IMG/VR virus record: IMGVR_UViG_2690316285_000008
Span: 1 to 6,986 of that record
Length of the DNA: 6,986 bases
Origin: a virus
Taxonomy: Duplodnaviria; Heunggongvirae; Uroviricota; Caudoviricetes
Direction: 5' to 3' (one strand)
The position numbers and the translations under genes were made by a program. Numbering within the stretch: the stretch's first letter is position 1; every line of letters starts with the position of its first letter. Positions 1 through 6,986 of this stretch are shown here, piece by piece. Below the pieces are notes generated by a model. It made no database searches and was not told where the DNA came from. It was given only the letters and a program-made list of their open reading frames with translations.

Positions 1-437
1 GCCCATACCGGCGGCTTACCATCCGGATACTGGATCTTGTTTGTAAAAACCTCGCTTTCAATAAATTTTTTTCCGTGACAGCAGGGGCACTGTTTTTTGC
101 TCGCCGCGCTACGGGCATAATCTTCAAACGCATACGAAGCCATAATACGCATCACTGCCGGTTTTATTTCTGCCGGGAGTTTTCTTAACGCCGCCACGCG
201 ATCACACCGACTGAGTGCATATTCTGTCAGCAATTCTGTTGCCCGCTCTCTGTCATTCATACTAATGCCCATTTTCCCAAGGAACGCAGAAACCCCCATC
301 TCAGCCCGATTCTGTGTCATGCCCTGCGCGGCCATCACATCAGTGATACTCAGCGCATCTTTCGACGTTGAGGCCGATGCATCAGTCAGGCCGGGGGATT
401 TTGGGGAGTAGTATTTCGGTAAATCTTCCAGTTTCAT
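1..437 (-). CDS. Late-gene antitermination protein Q (lambda Q family), N-terminal ~145 codons; 3' end runs off the window start
   Basis: ATG at 437..435 overlaps the rusA stop (ATGA at 437..434) and the frame stays open to position 1. Translation begins MKLEDLPKYYSPKSPGLTDASASTSKDALSITDVMAAQGMTQNR, which parallels the lambda Q N-terminus as I recall it (MRLESVAKFHSPKSP...DVMAAMGMAQ). A CPCCHG zinc-finger-like motif follows near the window edge. Not in the ORF track because it is truncated. Confidence 0.75.
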   Translation of the reverse strand, partial: MKLEDLPKYYSPKSPGLTDASASTSKDALSITDVMAAQGMTQNRAEMGVSAFLGKMGISMNDRERATELLTEYALSRCDRVAALRKLPAEIKPAVMRIMASYAFEDYARSAASKKQCPCCHGKKFIESEVFTNKIQYPDGKPPVW

Positions 438-814
438 TTTTTGACCTGCTCTTCATGCATTATGGGGTAAATCTTCACCCCCAGACGTCCACCAGATACT
501 GGCTGACCACGAACGATATTGATTTCATCAAACTGCTCATCGTCCATTAGCAACCCCGCATGCGTCAGCGCATCCAGCGGCGCTTTCAGAATATTGTCCA
601 GGTCACGGCGGCGCTTATCCGGTGGTTCTGCAATAATTTTTATTGCCAACCTTCCGGACAGGCTTAATTTCAGCCGCTGCTGGCGAACAATAAGCGCCAC
701 TGCCCGGCGATAACGCTCCCCGGCTTTTGATACAAAATATGTGCTGCCACGACGACGCCAGTAAGTGTTCACCGTCGGCGGGTAAGGTAAAACAAATTCT
801 ATGCGCTCGGTCAT
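434..814 (-). CDS. rusA: RusA Holliday junction resolvase (crossover junction endodeoxyribonuclease)
   Basis: 126-aa ORF with ATG at 814..812. Carries the RusA hallmarks PYPPTVNTYWR and PPDKRRRDLDNILKAPLDAL. Sits immediately 5' of Q, as in lambdoid nin regions. Confidence 0.9.
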   Translation of the reverse strand: MTERIEFVLPYPPTVNTYWRRRGSTYFVSKAGERYRRAVALIVRQQRLKLSLSGRLAIKIIAEPPDKRRRDLDNILKAPLDALTHAGLLMDDEQFDEINIVRGQPVSGGRLGVKIYPIMHEEQVKK

Positions 815-1873
815 TTATGCTTTCCACTTCAGAACACCCGAATTTCTCGCGTGCATTAAAAAACGAATCAGCAACAACAGCTGACTGCCGTGTTTCTCTT
901 CAAAATCTTTTACTCCGGCATGTAGTTCGTTACGGCATTTACGGCATAACGGAATAACAAACAAATCATCAGCCTTTGTTCCCATCCCTCCCAGTCCATG
1001 ACCAATGATGTGATGCGGATCATCTGCCTGATTGCCACACGTCATGCATTTCTGCGTTTTTACCCAGCGCGTGTATACAGGCATCTCTTCCCGTTGTGAT
1101 TTCTGGCGCTGGAGATACTGAGCCGGTGACTCCGGATCAACGGCAATGCTGACCACCGTCTTTTCCTGTGGTGGGTTCTGTTGCTGGTGGACGTGAGGCA
1201 GTAACGCAATATTTTTTGTGCGCTGCTTCAGTATGCTGGTGGCTGTCTGCTCTCCCGGTATGATGTCGCTTTCACTGTACACAGAGCGAATTTTTTCCGC
1301 ACGCAACCCCAGCGAACGACGTAATACCGCTTCCGGTAGCGCGTCCGCCACCTGATTGCGGACCGCCCACCAGGATAATTCAGCCAGAGATAATTCACGC
1401 TCCTGCGTACCGCTTATTGCGTGACCGATGACGTCAATCATCCATGCTGACAGGTTTTGATGAGCAAGTTGCTCGAGTGATTCGGATGTCTGGTCACGCA
1501 GCTGGTTGTCGCAGTGCCAGCACAACACCATTGCGCCGGTACCATAACGGTGAATGACGGTTTCGCTGTGATGATAATCGCCGTGTGGCCACTGGCAGGA
1601 TTTAATATGGCGCAACAGCCAGTCAGACAATGCACCAGCACCACCAGCAGCACGAATCACCCGTGCGTTACTGAAAAACGGCAGCAATGTTTTGTCTTCC
1701 ACCAGCGGCTGGCGAGCGGCAGGAACGACCCCGGACGGCAGATTACGCATGCTTTTTGGTTCCGGCTCCACCAGTATTCTGCCGTTATGGAATGCTGACA
1801 TTGATTCACGGCCTGGCTTAACGATAACCAGACCGAGTTCCGGTACCAGAACAGGTCGAAGTAATACCCGCAC
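815..1873 (-). CDS. YdfU-like (DUF968-type) prophage protein with a C-terminal HNH-like zinc-finger motif
   Basis: 352-aa ORF whose stop TAA (817..815) directly abuts the rusA ATG. C-terminal region has CMTCG...DDPHHIIGHGLGG...VIPLCRKCRNELH (CxxC / HH / CxxC spacing typical of HNH nucleases). The listed start at 1873 is GTG; an in-frame ATG lies at 1801..1799. Size and position match ydfU of Qin. Confidence 0.7.
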   Translation of the reverse strand: MRVLLRPVLVPELGLVIVKPGRESMSAFHNGRILVEPEPKSMRNLPSGVVPAARQPLVEDKTLLPFFSNARVIRAAGGAGALSDWLLRHIKSCQWPHGDYHHSETVIHRYGTGAMVLCWHCDNQLRDQTSESLEQLAHQNLSAWMIDVIGHAISGTQERELSLAELSWWAVRNQVADALPEAVLRRSLGLRAEKIRSVYSESDIIPGEQTATSILKQRTKNIALLPHVHQQQNPPQEKTVVSIAVDPESPAQYLQRQKSQREEMPVYTRWVKTQKCMTCGNQADDPHHIIGHGLGGMGTKADDLFVIPLCRKCRNELHAGVKDFEEKHGSQLLLLIRFLMHARNSGVLKWKA

Positions 1874-1874
1874 A

Positions 1875-2153
1875 TTACCTCCAGATCCGTTGCTGGAATG
1901 TGCGGGACGGACGCGTTGGCCGTTCGGAGTAAGGGAGCCTGACGGAGATTATCCAGTGACGGTAGTCGAGGCTAAGGGCTTTTTTAACCTCGCATCCGCG
2001 CCTGCGGTAACACTGAATGAGCCATTCGGCCTGTTCTTCAGTGCATGGGGGATGCTGGTACCAATCAGATTTAAATGCGTGAGAGCGCCGCCCGTGCCTG
2101 CTGGCAAAGACGGCTGAATTATCAGAATTGTGTAGTCTGGAATTTTGCGCCAT
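1875..2153 (-). CDS. Hypothetical prophage protein (92 aa)
   Basis: ATG at 2153..2151 preceded by GGAG with a 7-nt spacer. Stop TAA (1877..1875) overlaps an ATG at 1875..1873 (TAATG). No recognisable family. Confidence 0.45.
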   Translation of the reverse strand: MAQNSRLHNSDNSAVFASRHGRRSHAFKSDWYQHPPCTEEQAEWLIQCYRRRGCEVKKALSLDYRHWIISVRLPYSERPTRPSRTFQQRIWR

Positions 2154-2219
2154 CGGCTTTCTCCGGTGGCACAGTGTTACTCAACAGGGGTTCAGCCCTG
2201 CGCTGAATTGTAGATGAAT

Positions 2220-2480
2220 TCACTCATCTTCAAAAGCAGAAAAACCAGCCTTAATCCCAGCTTCTTTCAGAGACGGCAACGATGTGACAAATTCATTTGC
2301 ACGCGAAATAAAACCATCCGTCACAAGCCCATCCACAAAATGAATTAACGCAGCTCCACTCTTCCTTTGTTGAGACTGTAAACATTTAATACGGCAGTGG
2401 CTGACAATAGCGCCATTCTCAACGCGCACAGTATAGAGGCCATCTTCACTAAAAATTTCACGTAATTCTTCGATTTTCAT
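2220..2480 (-). CDS. Hypothetical prophage protein (86 aa from the ATG; the track shows 87 aa from an upstream TTG)
   Basis: ATG at 2480..2478 preceded by GGAAGGA with an 8-nt spacer. The track start at 2483 is TTG. Positionally equivalent to rem of Qin, but the sequence is not recognised. Confidence 0.5.
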   Translation of the reverse strand: MKIEELREIFSEDGLYTVRVENGAIVSHCRIKCLQSQQRKSGAALIHFVDGLVTDGFISRANEFVTSLPSLKEAGIKAGFSAFEDE

Positions 2481-2555
2481 CAACAGAATCCTTCCAGATA
2501 AATAGCACTCCCCTGTTCGGGGTCCATCCCTCTTCTCCCTGCGCGCTACTTAAGT

Positions 2556-2592
2556 ATTTTTGATTCTATTCCGGCACCATCTAAAACTTCAA
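2556..2592 (-). promoter_or_regulatory. Candidate sigma70 promoter for the 86-aa gene and downstream operon
   Basis: On the minus strand TTGAAG (2592..2587), 18-nt spacer, TAGAAT (2568..2563), lying between the hok-1 terminator and the 86-aa gene. Motif match only. Confidence 0.25.
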
Positions 2593-2606
2593 ACGCGTTG
2601 AAAATA

Positions 2607-2631
2607 AAAACAAAAACCCGCCGAAGCGGGT
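2607..2631 (-). terminator. Intrinsic terminator at the 3' end of hok-1 mRNA
   Basis: Minus-strand hairpin CCCGC-UUCG-GCGGG (plus 2617..2630) followed by a U5 run (plus-strand A-run 2612..2616). Confidence 0.5.
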
Positions 2632-2700
2632 TAAGTGTGGGTGCATTGAGGATGCCTGACCCATCAGAGGTGGCGAGGGATTTCTCCCCCGCCTGGTCTC

Positions 2701-2856
2701 TTACTCCTCAGGTTCGTAAGCTGTGAAGACAGCGACCTCCGTCTGGCCGGTTCGAATTCGTACCTCGCAGAGGTCTTTCCTCGTTACCAGTGCCGTCACT
2801 ATGACGGTTAAACAGATGACGATCAGGGCGATTAACATCGCCTTTTGCTGCTTCAT
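2701..2856 (-). CDS. hokD: Hok-family type I toxin (51 aa), hok-1
   Basis: Translation MKQQKAMLIALIVICLTVIVTALVTRKDLCEVRIRTGQTEVAVFTAYEPEE from ATG 2856..2854, preceded by AGGAG with a 9-nt spacer. Matches my recollection of HokD/RelF and the Hok fold (TM helix then conserved Cys). It is the C-terminal part of the 70-aa ORF in the track. Confidence 0.85.
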   Translation of the reverse strand: MKQQKAMLIALIVICLTVIVTALVTRKDLCEVRIRTGQTEVAVFTAYEPEE

Positions 2857-2913
2857 AGCCTGCTTCTCCTTGCCTTTCGGCACGTAAGAGGCTAACCTAG
2901 ATTTGCCGTTCAT
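2701..2913 (-). CDS. Mok-like reading frame (70 aa), an in-frame N-terminal extension of hok-1
   Basis: ATG at 2913..2911 with GAGG 8 nt upstream; frame is continuous with hok (MNGKSRLASYVPKGKEKQA-MKQQ...), as I recall for chromosomal mok/hok pairs. Confidence 0.5.
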   Translation of the reverse strand: MNGKSRLASYVPKGKEKQAMKQQKAMLIALIVICLTVIVTALVTRKDLCEVRIRTGQTEVAVFTAYEPEE

Positions 2914-2978
2914 AGATTGAGCCTCAGATTAATGTTAAGCGTCTTGCCGGACGCGTAATGTTAACTGGGGCTTTTCTC
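2904..2978 (+). ncRNA. Candidate Sok antisense RNA for hok-1
   Basis: Plus-strand promoter-like TTGCCT (2870..2875), 17-nt spacer, TAACCT (2893..2898). Long imperfect hairpin with outer stem GCCUCAG (2921..2927) and CUGGGGC (2965..2971), followed by UUUUCUC (2972..2978). Antisense to the mok SD and start. Boundaries are approximate. Confidence 0.4.
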
Positions 2979-3026
2979 TATCTGCCTTTTGGTGTTCATG
3001 CCTGAGACAGATAGCCTCAAGCACCC

Positions 3027-3060
3027 GCTGCAATTCTACTTAACTCTCCTTTTCCCGCAA
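3027..3060 (-). promoter_or_regulatory. Candidate hok-1 mRNA promoter
   Basis: Minus strand TTGCGG (3060..3055), 16-nt spacer, TAGAAT (3038..3033), predicted start near 3026. The predicted 5' end GGUGCUUGAGG (plus 3015..3025) is complementary, with a 1-nt bulge, to a 3' element at plus 2640..2651, like the hok tac/fbi pairing. Confidence 0.4.
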
Positions 3061-3067
3061 ACCGTTT

Positions 3068-3151
3068 TTATCCCCAGCGGCAAATCGAATACACCACCAG
3101 CGCCACCGCCATCGCAATTCCTACCGTTGTTAATGCTTCAGGCCAGGTCAT
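3068..3151 (-). CDS. Small hydrophobic peptide, 27 aa ([27 protein letters not shown]), copy 1
   Basis: ATG at 3151..3149 overlaps the 114-aa gene stop (ATGA). GGAGGA lies 9 nt upstream. A second copy at 4601..4684 differs by 4 synonymous and 1 conservative change. Below the ORF-track length cut-off. Confidence 0.55.
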
Positions 3152-3492
3152 CGTAAAATATCCTCCACGCTTATCAGTCCGTTCCGCTCCAGATAACTCA
3201 TCGCCTTATCCGGTAATTTGCAGTCTGGCTTCGCTTTTCTCAGTTGCCAGGTTAACTGCTTTACCAGCATGGTTAACTCATCGACCAGACGCTGATATCC
3301 CACTGGTTTGTATTCATGCAATTTACCGGCTGGCTCTGCTGCCAGCGATACCAGTGCGATTTCCAGAACAGCAATATCCATCTTATATGTGCGGATGATG
3401 TCATGGTCGATTGTGCCCGGTATGCACAGTCTCTGTGCTTCAATAGTCTCCTCTGCGTGAGCTATTAACTGCTCTCTGGTAAAAGTCGTCAT
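3148..3492 (-). CDS. Hypothetical prophage protein, 114 aa (MTT-start paralog family)
   Basis: ATG at 3492..3490 overlaps the 55-aa gene stop (ATGA) inside a conserved 48-bp junction. N-terminus MTTFTREQL and a VSLAAEP segment are shared with the 55-aa and 221-aa proteins. Confidence 0.65.
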
Positions 3493-3897
3493 GCCGTAGC
3501 CCCTTCTTGATATTTTTCAAACCAGAACACAACCGGCTCTGCTTCCAGCGATGCCAGCGCAATCCGTGCCAGTTCCATTTGTTCACCACGGGTAAGCCCG
3601 TTTTCAAGCGGGTTTTTAATGAACAATTCAATACGTTCTTTGGTAATAGTGGTCATGTGTTACTCCTTAACCCGCAGTGCTTTCAACTGATGAGGGGAAC
3701 AAAATCTTTTCATCAAACCCTGCATTCATATCATGAACAGCAACACACCAATCCATCGACGAACGATTATCAAGAGCCTCCATGATTTCATCCATGCGGC
3801 GTAGGTCATACAGGTAAATGCTTTTATCGCCAATGGTGTAAAAGCCAATTTTTTTCGGTGATGGATGAGGTGTACTGGCAATAGCGGACACTACCAT
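3274..3897. repeat. Direct repeat U, copy 1 (identical to 6363..6986)
   Basis: Visual alignment shows identity over 623 bp at a constant offset of 3089 bp. The left boundary falls inside the 114-aa gene; the right boundary is limited by the window end. Confidence 0.85.
3489..3656 (-). CDS. Hypothetical small protein, 55 aa ([55 protein letters not shown])
   Basis: ATG at 3656..3654 with GGAG 6 nt upstream. Ends with the same 16 residues as the HNH protein because both 3' ends lie in the conserved junction. Not in the ORF track (under 60 aa). Identical copy at 6578..6745. Confidence 0.55.
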
Positions 3898-3936
3898 TTG
3901 TTCTTTTTTTAAGCAGCCATCTGATGAATCGGGCAT
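3667..3936 (-). CDS. Hypothetical prophage protein (89 aa from ATG 3936; 76 aa if ATG 3897 is used)
   Basis: Protein-like translation (...KKIGFYTIGDKSIYLYDLRRMDEIMEALDNRSSMDWCVAVHDMNAGFDEKILFPSS). Neither ATG has a clear SD. The track's 133-aa version starts at a GTG inside the hok-2 3' UTR and is probably over-extended. Confidence 0.45.
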   Translation of the reverse strand: MPDSSDGCLKKEQMVVSAIASTPHPSPKKIGFYTIGDKSIYLYDLRRMDEIMEALDNRSSMDWCVAVHDMNAGFDEKILFPSSVESTAG

Positions 3937-3978
3937 TATCTGAACATAAAACACTATCAATAAGTTGGAGTCATTACC

Positions 3979-4000
3979 AAAAAAACCGCCGAAACGGGTT
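3979..4000 (-). terminator. Weak terminator-like element at the 3' end of hok-2 mRNA
   Basis: Degenerate counterpart of the hok-1 terminator: short stem followed by a U7 run (plus-strand A-run 3979..3985). Confidence 0.3.
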
Positions 4001-4070
4001 AAGTGCGGGTGCGTTGAGGATGCCTGACACATCAAAGGTGGCGGGAGATTACTCTCCCGCCTGGTCACTC

Positions 4071-4226
4071 TTACTCTCTAGATTCGTAGTCTACGAAAAC
4101 AGCGACCTCCGTCTGGCCGATTCGGATTCGTACCTCGCAGAGGTCTTTCCTCGTTACCAGTGCCGTCACTATGACGGTTAAACAGATGACGATCAGGGCG
4201 ATTAACATCGCCTTTTGCTGCTTCAT
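4071..4226 (-). CDS. Hok-family type I toxin paralog (51 aa), hok-2
   Basis: Translation MKQQKAMLIALIVICLTVIVTALVTRKDLCEVRIRIGQTEVAVFVDYESRE from ATG 4226..4224. Identical to hok-1 through residue 34, diverged in the C-terminal tail. Confidence 0.8.
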   Translation of the reverse strand: MKQQKAMLIALIVICLTVIVTALVTRKDLCEVRIRIGQTEVAVFVDYESRE

Positions 4227-4283
4227 AGCCTGCTTCTCCTTGCCTTTCGGCACGTAAGAGGCTAACCTACATTTGTGAGACAT
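4071..4283 (-). CDS. Mok-like reading frame (70 aa), an in-frame extension of hok-2
   Basis: ATG at 4283..4281; N-terminus MSHKCRLASYVPKGKEKQA then hok in frame. Confidence 0.45.
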   Translation of the reverse strand: MSHKCRLASYVPKGKEKQAMKQQKAMLIALIVICLTVIVTALVTRKDLCEVRIRIGQTEVAVFVDYESRE

Positions 4284-4348
4284 AGATTGGGCCTCAGATT
4301 AATGTTAAGCGTCTTGCAGGACGCGTAATGTTAACTGGGGCTTTTCTC
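4274..4348 (+). ncRNA. Candidate Sok antisense RNA for hok-2
   Basis: Same architecture as sok-1, offset by 1370 bp: hairpin GCCUCAG (4291..4297) / CUGGGGC (4335..4341) followed by UUUUCUC (4342..4348). The 5' single-stranded tail differs from sok-1 at several positions. Confidence 0.4.
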
Positions 4349-4564
4349 TGTCTGCCTTACAGTGACATACCCGAGGCAGACAGCCTCAAGCACCCGCAGC
4401 AATCTTACCGACACCGATAAGAAAACGCTATTTTTTATTGCCAGCACCATCTATCCAGGCTAGTTTATCTGCGTCAGAACGGCGCAATGCGCTCGCCTGA
4501 GATACGTTTACTTGCCATGGTAACAACAGGTAACGGCAATTGCTGTTTCTGTTTTGTTTCCTTC

Positions 4565-4595
4565 AAAAACCCCGGACCATCAATCCGGGGTTTTT
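4565..4595. terminator. Bidirectional intrinsic terminator
   Basis: Perfect 6-bp GC stem CCCCGG (4570..4575) / CCGGGG (4585..4590) with a 9-nt loop, flanked by A5 (4565..4569) and T5 (4591..4595). Lies just 3' of the 27-aa gene copy 2. Confidence 0.65.
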
Positions 4596-4600
4596 GTTTG

Positions 4601-4684
4601 TTAACCCCAACGGCAAATCGAATACACCACCAGCGCCACCGCCATCGCAATTCCTACCGTGGTGAATGCCTCAGGCCAGGTCAT
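4601..4684 (-). CDS. Small hydrophobic peptide, 27 aa ([27 protein letters not shown]), copy 2
   Basis: ATG at 4684..4682 overlaps the DUF551-like gene stop (ATGA). AGGAGG lies 7 nt upstream. Followed by the terminator at 4565..4595. Confidence 0.55.
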   Translation of the reverse strand: MTWPEAFTTVGIAMAVALVVYSICRWG

Positions 4685-5046
4685 TGATTCACCTCCTGCG
4701 GTGGTTCCGGTAGCGGCATCCAGTGAGTTGAGCTCTCTACTTCAACGCCGTCTTTGTCCACAAAAGCCATCTTATTCCCGCCACGAGTGGGGCAAAAAAC
4801 CTTATCCCAGGAACCGGGGAATACATTCCCGAGATCATCGAGAAGAATCACATCGCAATATTCAGCAGGAACTGCATCACTACAGCTTATCCAGCCAGCC
4901 GGAGCTACCGGAGAGTTGCCAGCCTTACGCATGGCCATTTCCACGATTTCAACCATATCTCCTGGTGGAATTTTACAAAGTTGCCCAATACATTTCTGCT
5001 GCCTGGCATATTCGAGAATGTGCTCCAGTTTGGTTCGATTAATCAT
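4681..5046 (-). CDS. DUF551-like phage protein (121 aa)
   Basis: ATG at 5046..5044 overlaps the 221-aa gene stop (TAATG); GGGAG lies 7 nt upstream. C-terminal THWMPLPEPP and internal Trp/Gly pattern match my recollection of the DUF551 family. Confidence 0.65.
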   Translation of the reverse strand: MINRTKLEHILEYARQQKCIGQLCKIPPGDMVEIVEMAMRKAGNSPVAPAGWISCSDAVPAEYCDVILLDDLGNVFPGSWDKVFCPTRGGNKMAFVDKDGVEVESSTHWMPLPEPPQEVNQ

Positions 5047-5711
5047 TATTTATCTCCCTTAAGCATGGCAGCGCGGCAGGCGTTCCAGCCATCAACATAA
5101 TCAAACGTATTACTATCGTTTGGCCCGATTTCATCCGGCACTATCGGCTCTGGTTGGATAGTGACGTTGGCAAAGGCAGCACGCAAACCGGTTTTAATTT
5201 CTTCGATTTCATCAGAGCCAAGCGATGAATCTGACAGTGCGTGATGGAATGCGTAAGCCATGTCGTCGTTTACTGCAACCGGCACTGCCGGCGCTGCGTA
5301 AAGCGGTGTTATATCTGCCCGAAAATCACATGCTTTATGCAGTCGTACCCAACACTCAACTTCCGCTTTGTCAAAATATATAGCAGTGAACGTATTAGAT
5401 TCCTGGTCAACTTGAGTAAACGTCACCTTCCACGCTACAGCTACGGCTTTCCATCCATCAGGTTGTCGCATTCGCGGGGCAGCATAAAGCTCATGCATTC
5501 CATCAGGCAGCGAGTGACCCACATACTCACCGAACCCGTCAATACACATGCCCCCATCTTCAACAATGCATTCCGCTACAGGCTCTGCTTCCAGTGATGC
5601 CAGAGCGATAAGCGCCAGTTCACGAATTTCACCGCCGTCTATATCGTCAATATCATCGCGGCCAGAAATGTTAGCCAGCCATTGCAGTCGCTCTTTGGTA
5701 ATAGTGGTCAT
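5046..5711 (-). CDS. Hypothetical prophage protein, 221 aa (MTT-start paralog family)
   Basis: ATG at 5711..5709 overlaps the HNH stop (ATGA) in the conserved junction, with AAGGGG 7 nt upstream. N-terminus MTTITKERL and [12 protein letters not shown] are shared with the 55-aa protein. LYAAP occurs twice internally. Confidence 0.7.
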   Translation of the reverse strand: MTTITKERLQWLANISGRDDIDDIDGGEIRELALIALASLEAEPVAECIVEDGGMCIDGFGEYVGHSLPDGMHELYAAPRMRQPDGWKAVAVAWKVTFTQVDQESNTFTAIYFDKAEVECWVRLHKACDFRADITPLYAAPAVPVAVNDDMAYAFHHALSDSSLGSDEIEEIKTGLRAAFANVTIQPEPIVPDEIGPNDSNTFDYVDGWNACRAAMLKGDK

Positions 5712-6073
5712 GCCGTAGCCCCTTCTTGATATTTTTCAAACCAGAACACAACCGGGTCAGATTTCATTTCAACCAATCCCATACGAACCAGCGCTTTGCC
5801 TTTCCCGGACGCAAGGAATTCACGACGACCATCACTGATAATTCGTCGATAATCTTCCAGGCTACTGCAATGCTTGTGCAGATTGCATGGGTGGCATGCT
5901 GGTACCATGTTGGATATATCGTCACGTTCCTGGTGAAGCATATTTCCATCAAAACGAATGACCGGTTTTACATGGTCTGCATGCCACTTTTCGCCAAGTT
6001 CGCAGCCGCAATAAGCGCAGCGACCACCGAACTTCATGCGCAGTTCTGCACGTTGTTTTTTCGTCAGTGCCAT
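5708..6073 (-). CDS. HNH endonuclease (121 aa)
   Basis: ATG at 6073..6071 with AAGGAAAG 6 nt upstream. Motifs CAYCGC, HADHVKP, N...PACHPCNLHK fit the HNH zinc-finger nuclease pattern. The track's 151-aa version starts at a TTG. Confidence 0.85.
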   Translation of the reverse strand: MALTKKQRAELRMKFGGRCAYCGCELGEKWHADHVKPVIRFDGNMLHQERDDISNMVPACHPCNLHKHCSSLEDYRRIISDGRREFLASGKGKALVRMGLVEMKSDPVVFWFEKYQEGATA

Positions 6074-6074
6074 A

Positions 6075-6293
6075 TCAGCTTTCCTTATACGGATTAATTT
6101 TATTGTGCAGTGTGTTGAATGACGCCCATACCACGTCGTTATACAATTCAATAACTGGCTCAATTATTTTTCCGATTATCCAGACAAAAATTAGCGGGGA
6201 TATCGGTGTCATCAACACGATAAACAGAATGAGAAACAGGAATTCTGTTGTTCTACTCTTTCGCGGATATTTTTTTCTAAATAATGTAACCAT
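6075..6293 (-). CDS. Candidate small membrane protein (72 aa) in an AT-rich segment
   Basis: ATG at 6293..6291; Lys/Arg-rich N-terminus then a hydrophobic stretch FLFLILFIVLMTPISPLIFVWIIGKII. Stop is 1 nt before the HNH start. GC content of 6090..6300 is clearly lower than the surroundings, so chance hydrophobicity is possible. Confidence 0.4.
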   Translation of the reverse strand: MVTLFRKKYPRKSRTTEFLFLILFIVLMTPISPLIFVWIIGKIIEPVIELYNDVVWASFNTLHNKINPYKES

Positions 6294-6296
6294 TCA

Positions 6297-6581
6297 TTAC
6301 CGCCCTTTCGAGCGGTCTCCTGATGATTTGAGGGTGCAGAAATCCCTCCGGTTAAGGATTAATAACTCATCGACCAGACGCTGATATCCCACTGGTTTGT
6401 ATTCATGCAATTTACCGGCTGGCTCTGCTGCCAGCGATACCAGTGCGATTTCCAGAACAGCAATATCCATCTTATATGTGCGGATGATGTCATGGTCGAT
6501 TGTGCCCGGTATGCACAGTCTCTGTGCTTCAATAGTCTCCTCTGCGTGAGCTATTAACTGCTCTCTGGTAAAAGTCGTCAT
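6297..6581 (-). pseudogene. Truncated/chimeric copy of the 114-aa gene
   Basis: First 73 codons are identical to 3148..3492; identity ends at the repeat boundary (6363) and the frame runs 21 more codons into unrelated AT-rich DNA before TAA at 6299..6297. Confidence 0.5.
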
Positions 6582-6745
6582 GCCGTAGCCCCTTCTTGAT
6601 ATTTTTCAAACCAGAACACAACCGGCTCTGCTTCCAGCGATGCCAGCGCAATCCGTGCCAGTTCCATTTGTTCACCACGGGTAAGCCCGTTTTCAAGCGG
6701 GTTTTTAATGAACAATTCAATACGTTCTTTGGTAATAGTGGTCAT
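6578..6745 (-). CDS. Hypothetical small protein, 55 aa, identical second copy
   Basis: Lies in the exact repeat (offset 3089 bp from 3489..3656), with the same RBS and ATGA overlap. Confidence 0.5.
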
Positions 6746-6755
6746 GTGTTACTCC

Positions 6756-6986
6756 TTAACCCGCAGTGCTTTCAACTGATGAGGGGAACAAAATCTTTTC
6801 ATCAAACCCTGCATTCATATCATGAACAGCAACACACCAATCCATCGACGAACGATTATCAAGAGCCTCCATGATTTCATCCATGCGGCGTAGGTCATAC
6901 AGGTAAATGCTTTTATCGCCAATGGTGTAAAAGCCAATTTTTTTCGGTGATGGATGAGGTGTACTGGCAATAGCGGACACTACCAT
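6756..6986 (-). CDS. Second copy of the 89/76-aa hypothetical protein; 5' end may lie beyond the window
   Basis: Identical to 3667..3897. The window ends exactly on the ATG equivalent to 3897, so the equivalent of the 3936 start would be outside the window. Confidence 0.45.
   Translation of the reverse strand: MVVSAIASTPHPSPKKIGFYTIGDKSIYLYDLRRMDEIMEALDNRSSMDWCVAVHDMNAGFDEKILFPSSVESTAG

Follow-up and report, generated by a model that had tools for sequence, protein, structure and literature searches.

Does a stand-alone HNH nuclease gene that lies among small genes in a prophage belong to a dedicated anti-phage system, or is it one item of ordinary accessory cargo? We asked this of a locus in a virus of the class Caudoviricetes, positions 1 to 6,986 of IMG/VR record IMGVR_UViG_2690316285_000008, a stretch of 6,986 nt that we call the window. 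Four adjacent open reading frames (ORFs) are present on its minus strand at 4681-6293, encoding a DUF4014 membrane protein, the HNH nuclease, a 221-aa protein (p221) and a DUF551 protein. A model that was given only the letters and their ORFs (the sequence-only reading) had listed the same four genes and proposed that they might serve anti-phage defence or superinfection exclusion. We find that they are probably best described as recombination-shuffled early accessory genes of lambdoid phages together with a mobile, homing-like HNH module, and that the region 4601-6362 is, on balance, not a dedicated system; it appears to be one combination from the lambdoid pool that fills the exo-xis/ea and nin-equivalent regions.

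Gene combinations across phages and E. coli genomes

We fetched 158 IMG/VR loci seeded on HNH or DUF4014, 80 of them on HNH, and mapped the window proteins onto them. In most HNH-seeded loci the HNH gene (95-100% amino acid identity) follows DUF4014, and in others it follows a 135-151-aa 'MTELTKEQ' protein, a 62-63-aa basic protein, 229-299-aa Ead-like proteins or a 108-aa protein, with the preceding stop codon always 1 nt before the HNH ATG. The genes after HNH change as well, being a 114-aa gene (p114), p221 with DUF551, or other DUF551 genes, and the exact four-gene set of the window is found in about 14 of the 80 loci. When DUF4014 was the seed, a gene of family phrog_1714 (p1714), a DUF551-type gene or a gene of the type of a 55-aa ORF (p55) came next more often than HNH did. 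Complete E. coli genomes can be read in the same terms: 2,479 of 5,426 match some part of 4600-6400, 385 carry the full HNH gene, and two match at least 80% of the block. The Stx (Shiga toxin) phage ArgO145 has DUF4014, HNH and a p114-like gene in its early-left operon, beside int.

The modules occur in many other combinations. Across these loci each gene behaves as an independent module bounded by conserved junction sequences, namely stop/start overlaps, a 77-nt linker and a repeated 'MTTxTKE...LEAEPV' module. The sequence-only reading had named, as the outcome that would count against a defence role, that homology searches might place its genes among ordinary conserved lambdoid genes with replication or recombination roles; the first half of that description, a place among ordinary conserved lambdoid genes, largely applies.

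The imported block and its junctions

The unit that moved is larger than the four genes. It covers 3976-6362 and holds a leader, DUF4014, HNH, p221, DUF551, a 27-aa ORF (p27), a terminator and one sok/hok locus (copy B). This segment is a single contiguous 2,387-nt blastn match, at 99.6% identity, to E. coli FDAARGOS_944 (NZ_CP065613.1; locus L002, 8377-10763), and it is 99.9% identical to two IMG/VR loci (L016 and L025); the annotated block is 99.6-99.8% identical in E. coli FDAARGOS_944 and VL40. In FDAARGOS_944 its genes are annotated as a DUF4014 family protein (WP_000256997.1), an HNH endonuclease (WP_001229296.1), a hypothetical protein (WP_000208061.1), a DUF551 domain-containing protein (WP_038341689.1) and Hok/Gef, flanked by replication genes (YdaU, DnaC-like ATPase, DUF977) on one side and nin-like genes (DUF1367, DUF1364, DUF1133) on the other. 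The block is already known at the level of sequence and annotation, and as a find it matters little, since nearly identical genes already bear annotations in public E. coli genomes and in an Stx phage, and their families are catalogued in Pfam and PHROGs.

The remaining window resembles another prophage type, exemplified by E. coli strain 131, in which the order runs DUF4014-p1714-p55-p114-hokD-...-DUF968-RusA-antiterminator. Because the rest of the window matches this different type, we read the window as a strain-131-like backbone with a recombined FDAARGOS_944-like block; the genes would have arrived inside the 2.39-kb segment when it recombined into this second prophage backbone. A cassette confined to 4681-6293 had been proposed, and the inserted segment exceeds it, taking in hok/sok copy B and the 69-nt leader. 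That cassette was also described as an insert between conserved flanks, which holds relative to the other copy within the window, although the flanks are unequal. Upstream, a 624-nt perfect direct repeat adjoins the block, and downstream the two copies are only 90-93% identical (90% for the hok/sok regions at 2612-3034 and 3980-4403, 93% for the p27 regions).

At junction J1 (6362/6363) a copy of the 114-aa gene breaks off after about codon 73, which leaves a chimeric ORF of 94 aa; no other occurrence of J1 was found in complete E. coli genomes, GTDB species representatives or IMG/VR, and no record of the chimeric product was found. Junction J2, at 3975/3976, is seen in six IMG/VR loci. The 77-nt junction at the HNH 3′ end (repeat family D3) has further copies at 3471-3547 and 6560-6636 and is, judged by its sequence, a shared recombination linker. 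Recombination at such conserved junctions is what would perform the shuffling.

All candidate genes of the window lie on the minus strand. The successive junctions of the five-gene block, read from the sequence, are TGA-T-ATG, ATGA, TAATG and ATGA, and because of these stop/start arrangements we regard the five genes as translationally coupled. The sequence-only reading had described a coupled operon of four genes, all of which are real, but it missed p27 as the fifth. A 151-aa version of the HNH protein with a TTG start, taken from the ORF list, is an artefact that overlaps DUF4014; the ATG at 6073 matches the RefSeq call. Antisense ORFs on the plus strand across the region have no family support.

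The end of the cassette at a strong terminator, as first proposed, is borne out by a hairpin flanked by A and U tracts (−25.2 kcal/mol, z = −4.06), a stability reached in 0 of 200 shuffled sequences. Of the promoter and terminator of its own that would mark a moron, the terminator is present; as to the promoter, a scan with a simple consensus only showed no sigma-70-like site directly upstream of the block (minus strand, upstream of 6293). The leader folds at −25.3 kcal/mol, a stability not significantly above that of shuffled sequences (z = −1.78). Within it, at 6300-6317 on the minus strand, is a 7-bp hairpin with a GNRA (GAAA) tetraloop, immediately 5′ of the DUF4014 start codon, where it overlaps the likely ribosome-binding site. 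The block would be read through from the early-right operon once the prophage is induced and not in the lysogenic state. Further downstream, at 434-1873 on the minus strand, are a RusA resolvase and a 352-aa DUF968 protein with an HNHc_6-type nuclease motif; because these share the operon with HNH, the operon encodes three nuclease-type proteins. Coordinates are collected in Table 1.

Table 1. Position, strand and supporting match of the features discussed in the text.
Feature	Position	Strand	Basis or remark
DUF4014 membrane protein, 72 aa	6075-6293	−	PF13198, E 1e-25; phrog_1832, E 1.5e-44
HNH nuclease, 121 aa from ATG, zinc-ribbon His-Me finger	5708-6073	−	PF01844, E 3e-6; phrog_2118, E 4e-57
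p221, 221 aa, no Pfam family	5046-5711	−	phrog_60, phrog_12449, phrog_5117, phrog_660
DUF551 protein, 121 aa	4681-5046	−	PF04448, E 3e-19
p27, 27-aa hydrophobic ORF, unannotated	4601-4684	−	ATGA overlap with DUF551 stop
69-nt leader travelling with the DUF4014 gene	6294-6362	−	homology with HNH-less loci begins at 6362-6365
77-nt junction linker (HNH 3′ end and start of next gene)	5690-5766	−	repeat family D3, 91% identity
Bidirectional intrinsic-terminator hairpin, between p27 and sok/hok copy B	4564-4596		fold energy
hok/sok type I toxin-antitoxin locus, copy B	4071-4395	−	Rfam RF01794 and Hok/Gef-type ORF
hok/sok, copy A	2701-3026		Rfam RF01794
Perfect 624-nt repeat	6363-6986 = 3274-3897	−	self-blastn 100%; holds 5′ part of p114, p55 and phrog_1714 gene
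Truncated 114-aa gene copy, chimeric 94-aa ORF	6297-6581	−	cut at J1

The nuclease and its neighbours

By profile and by residues, the 121-aa protein is assigned to the HNH, or His-Me finger, nuclease family. Its PF01844 match scores 27.6 bits against a gathering score of 21.4, and C19, C22, H31, D33, H34, N55, C60, C63 and N64 are invariant among five homologues at 48-74% identity (alignment A1), which provides the catalytic His, the Asn, the distal Asn/His and two CxxC pairs of zinc ligands. Among solved structures the nearest is that of Gmet_0936 (4H9D), a small HNH protein of phage type, matched by profile at E 1e-3 over the motif only. This match and the similar small size would also suit a terminase-associated HNH protein that, like HK97 gp74, is needed to cleave cos. 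We consider that extremely improbable, because the gene lies in the early region (L001, L002 and L162), far from packaging genes and adjacent to neither terminase nor portal; the lysis genes and about 8 kb separate it from the terminase in FDAARGOS_944, the ArgO145 gene stands beside int, and prophages that differ in their late regions carry the same gene.

Relatives of the nuclease are spread sporadically among unrelated genomes, in 175 phage records that span more than 20 host genera and, as noted, in a minority of complete E. coli genomes. At 40-77% identity they include T1-like (IMM-001), T4-like (JSE, RB49 group), Klebsiella, Acinetobacter and Vibrio phages, as well as Caulobacter phages (annotated 'homing endonuclease'), Pseudomonas and Streptococcus phages. 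In the T4-like phage JSE (L165, 1950-2775), the homologue stands just after DNA ligase gene 30; the gene that comes next encodes 114 aa with transmembrane segments at the N-terminus, and BLAST shows no relationship between this product and DUF4014. In lambdoid phages, HNH genes have been noted to occur sporadically and to be apparently mobile (PMC12315714), and the features of the window gene fit those of a mobile, homing-like nuclease gene.

The HNH gene has also left traces where it is no longer whole. Its last 13 residues are conserved in distant homologues and are therefore native to it. The same 13 residues, joined to an Ea22-type N-terminal module, make up the 55-aa ORF (3489-3656 and 6578-6745, minus strand), and about 318 E. 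coli genomes carry nothing of the HNH gene but this relic of its 3′ end, 48-51 nt long. Because this relic persists in p55 and in those genomes, we suggest that the HNH slot has been partly overwritten repeatedly. The gene is kept by selection, since the ratio of nonsynonymous to synonymous polymorphism (pN/pS) is 0.07 among 43 alleles. Such strong purifying selection would be expected of a useful, non-selfish enzyme of phage DNA transactions, accessory to recombination-dependent replication and making nicks or ends for the Rec module. HNH nucleases are indeed listed as one nuclease type in lambdoid Rec modules (PMC12315714), and the operon also encodes, further downstream, RusA and the DUF968/HNHc_6 protein. 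We nevertheless think this role rather unlikely, because the gene is not within a Rec module in the window, ArgO145 and HK225, its carriers among E. coli genomes are few while similar prophages are far commoner, and, as the same source warns, position cannot assign a role to mobile HNH genes.

The neighbouring 72-aa protein, which profile searches identified as DUF4014, matches PF13198 at 90 bits against a gathering score of 23.2 (positions 1-71 of 72). It has a hydrophobic segment at residues 19-37 (Kyte-Doolittle maximum 2.68) and a pN/pS of 0.21 among 41 alleles, and its gene has a G+C content of 35.6% compared to 48.6% for the window. A separate ancestry of this AT-rich 5′ gene had been suggested from composition and is confirmed by the HNH-less loci, in which homology with the window runs from 6362-6365 to 6071 and ends exactly at the HNH start codon. 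DUF4014 occurs in 127 phage records, mostly without HNH; 933W, VT2-Sakai, epsilon15, ES18 and others carry it in this way. Two unrelated names for it are in public use, 'O-polysaccharide acetyltransferase inhibitor' and 'released from the phage upon host infection' (in the records of ArgO145, g341c, HK225 and PHROG 1832); we found no experimental basis in the literature for either name and take both as unverified. The order HNH then DUF4014, the reverse of that in the window, was seen in the nin region of HK225 (L162, 2501-3093) and the ea region of the P22-like phages BIS08P22 (L164, 2501-3135) and g341c (22323-22957), where an HNH homologue at 50-62% identity is directly followed by a DUF4014 homologue at 46-51%. 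Because the two are adjacent in both orders in divergent phages, we regard them as recurrent neighbours, neither of which needs the other, and their recurrent adjacency remains a minor lead for further work.

Several points weigh against a shuffled accessory block with a homing-like nuclease. The comparison of shared haplotypes, in which HNH exceeds the adjacent DUF4014 in nucleotide identity (97.8% versus 92.3%) and shows a lower pS (0.13 versus 0.23), draws on loci picked by HNH similarity, which inflates the apparent uniformity of HNH; uniformity is found independently in the E. coli genome search, where nearly all matches are at least 95% identical. A clean insertion of HNH at a conserved empty site is absent, as the HNH-less loci hold alternative genes in the slot, and Pfam recognises no sequence-specific DNA-binding domain in the 121 residues. 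The strong purifying selection on HNH is equally compatible with a benefit to the phage itself, a functional link may lie behind the adjacency of HNH and DUF4014 in both gene orders, and a consensus promoter scan is weak evidence on expression in the lysogen. We continue to favour shuffled accessory genes, and within that explanation the free-standing nuclease might nick or cut the DNA of related phages during lytic growth, provoking recombination that spreads the gene itself and its neighbours. We put this homing step forward only tentatively and hold it to be somewhat doubtful, because there is neither a clean empty site nor a recognisable specificity domain.

The two genes downstream of HNH are themselves mosaics. 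p221 is a chain of Ea22/EaA-type modules, with an MTTITKER...LEAEPV N-terminal module, three middle modules and a GWNACRAAML tail; its close relatives are in E. coli, Shigella flexneri and Shigella sonnei, and most of its 3,289 homologues share one or two modules only. Elsewhere these modules are fused to a C-terminal DUF551 domain (P0035, P0017, P0073 and P0117) or to an Ead_Ea22 N-terminus (P0044), and for this reason we interpret the p221/DUF551 pair as a split form of modular Ea22-like proteins, which may act on the host or on phage development. Profile searches place p221 in PHROG modules only. It has no Pfam hit at E < 0.1, Ead_Ea22 (PF13935) included, and from the alignments it is related to Ead/Ea22 by mosaicism and not as a member, its C-terminal modules being common to the PF13935-bearing P0044. 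An AlphaFold2 model from a 25-sequence alignment reached a mean predicted local distance difference test (pLDDT) score of 49, too poor for a fold search and consistent with small modules on flexible linkers.

Structure prediction was more informative for the DUF551 protein, whose residues 50-112 were modelled at a pLDDT of 81-88. The protein matches PF04448 over positions 1-68 of 68 (69.9 bits against a gathering score of 22) and combines a conserved 45-aa helical N-terminal part with a beta domain (alignment A4). Foldseek of the model against the PDB gave no significant match (best E 0.21, Tudor-like barrels), and sequence searches of the PDB with this protein and p221 returned nothing meaningful. 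The rims of the domain, PVTPDGWISCSxxMP and VTHWMPLPEPPQEV, are conserved, and the core between them, about 45 residues long, takes at least six discrete forms, unrelated in sequence, across E. coli prophages. Variation of a cassette-like kind is thus seen inside one domain (window 4681-4900, residues about 50-121), and this hypervariable core is a by-product lead of the analysis.

Conserved rims around hypervariable cores might be expected if the Ea22-like p221/DUF551 pair, perhaps with DUF4014 and p27, bound variable host proteins early in infection, as agents of counter-defence or host manipulation. The early-operon position of the genes would suit such a role, as would published work: Ea22 is mosaic, has DUF551 as the C-terminal domain of one Stx variant, and affects the choice between lysis and lysogeny, favouring lysogeny (PMC10834534), and the DUF551-containing YfdS affects oxidative-stress tolerance (PMC10834534, PMC4776307). 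However, the fold search pointed to no significant relative and the variability may be mere cassette recombination, and we judge host manipulation to be decidedly unlikely as the explanation of the block.

The genes beyond DUF551 complete the imported segment. The position beside toxin-antitoxin loci that had been proposed is confirmed: the Rfam sok model RF01794 gives two matches (118 and 112 bits, gathering score 59), each with Hok/Gef ORFs present, and the flanking loci are hok/sok type I toxin-antitoxin systems. Copy B includes an extra segment of about 165 nt, with the terminator hairpin, that is missing from copy A. The small ORF p27 begins MTWPEA[F/L] and is ATGA-coupled to the stop of either a DUF551 or a p114 gene; its second copy in the window, at 3068-3151 on the minus strand, follows the 114-aa gene. 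Its 99 matches fall into 32 nucleotide alleles with 141 synonymous and 37 nonsynonymous codon differences (pN/pS 0.19), and no NCBIfam or PHROG family matches it. It is present in 1,297 of the 5,426 complete E. coli genomes, including O157:H7 EDL933, with no separate feature listed under the match. A conserved 27-aa membrane ORF under purifying selection, lacking annotation in about a quarter of complete E. coli genomes, is a second by-product lead; together with DUF4014, p27 would be a small inner-membrane protein.

The defence question and known systems

How do these findings bear on defence? A prophage might express the block so that HNH, perhaps directed or anchored by DUF4014, destroys incoming phage DNA. 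At the domain level the HNH motif does look like the HNH effectors of the PtuB and retron types, several lambdoid phages have HNH and DUF4014 side by side in one order or the other, the block lies in a variable region beside hok/sok, and the DUF551 core is hypervariable. However, PADLOC (PADLOC-DB v2) matched only the HNH motif, with PtuB best at 31.6 bits and no PtuA partner. It gave no significant match for DUF4014, DUF551 or the scanned neighbours and only a chance-level JetA match for p221 (E 0.062, 9.9 bits), and no partner gene of any listed defence system is present beside the block. NCBIfam matches of HNH (IscB, retron-type) were far below their cut-offs, with TIGR02646 at 21.8 bits against 52. 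The four genes are not co-inherited, they sit inside early lytic operons of viable phages, and they are translationally coupled to the operon with no promoter-like site upstream.

We therefore consider a defence or superinfection-exclusion role unlikely. Of the sequence-only reading, the gene content stands, a stand-alone HNH gene with small partners carried as cargo, but the anti-phage role gained no support; the defence idea is, as far as sequence comparison can tell, unsupported, and the specific grounds for expecting defence have been removed. A literature search on Ea22-like proteins likewise found no link to defence. More speculatively, HNH and DUF4014 could form a two-component system in which the membrane protein positions or gates the nuclease against the DNA of incoming or competing phages, with the DUF551 core as a co-evolving specificity or counter-defence module, or p27 could have an exclusion or toxin-modulating role beside hok/sok; we rate these as very unlikely.

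The locus has its value as an illustration of the way in which lambdoid accessory regions are put together. Stop/start junctions, the 77-nt linker and repeated N-terminal modules enable cassette swaps, which reach genes and even parts of domains, and an HNH gene that hardly varies passes between the contexts so formed.

The block can be set beside known systems. Septu PtuB and retron-associated HNH effectors (PADLOC, TIGR02646) share its HNH motif (31.6 and 21.8 bits), but the scores are below the cut-offs, and the window protein is half their length and lacks a PtuA ATPase or retron partner. Gmet_0936 (PDB 4H9D) and HK97 gp74 are alike in their size of about 110-120 aa and their CxxC...H-N-(H/N)...CxxC His-Me finger, although the similarity is weak (E 1e-3) and confined to the motif, and the window gene does not stand beside terminase genes. 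Free-standing phage HNH homing endonucleases (T4 MobE, I-HmuI-type) resemble it in being stand-alone genes, sporadic across unrelated phages, polymorphic for presence and absence and more uniform than their flanks; in contrast to them, the window gene encodes only 121 aa without a NUMOD/IENR-type DNA-binding module, lacks a clean empty site and is strongly constrained by purifying selection.

Closest in sequence is the FDAARGOS_944 block. It differs from the window in its 118-aa gene upstream and DUF1367/DUF1364 downstream, where the window block is joined at 6362/6363 to the truncated 114-aa gene and followed by a second p1714-p55-p114-p27-hok unit; gene order, terminator, hok locus and the position between replication and nin-like genes are the same. 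Also close are the exo-xis/ea genes of lambda, P22 and Stx phages (Ea22, EaA, Ead; PMC10834534, PMC7093339). The window genes depart from these in lying on the early-right side, after the replication genes, in a p221 that falls below the Pfam Ead_Ea22 threshold, and in an Ea22-like architecture split over two genes. They agree in being small, non-essential early genes whose modular products share N-terminal modules and exchange C-terminal domains, DUF551 included, and the exo-xis/ea region of the Stx phage ArgO145 holds the identical trio of DUF4014, HNH and 114-aa genes.

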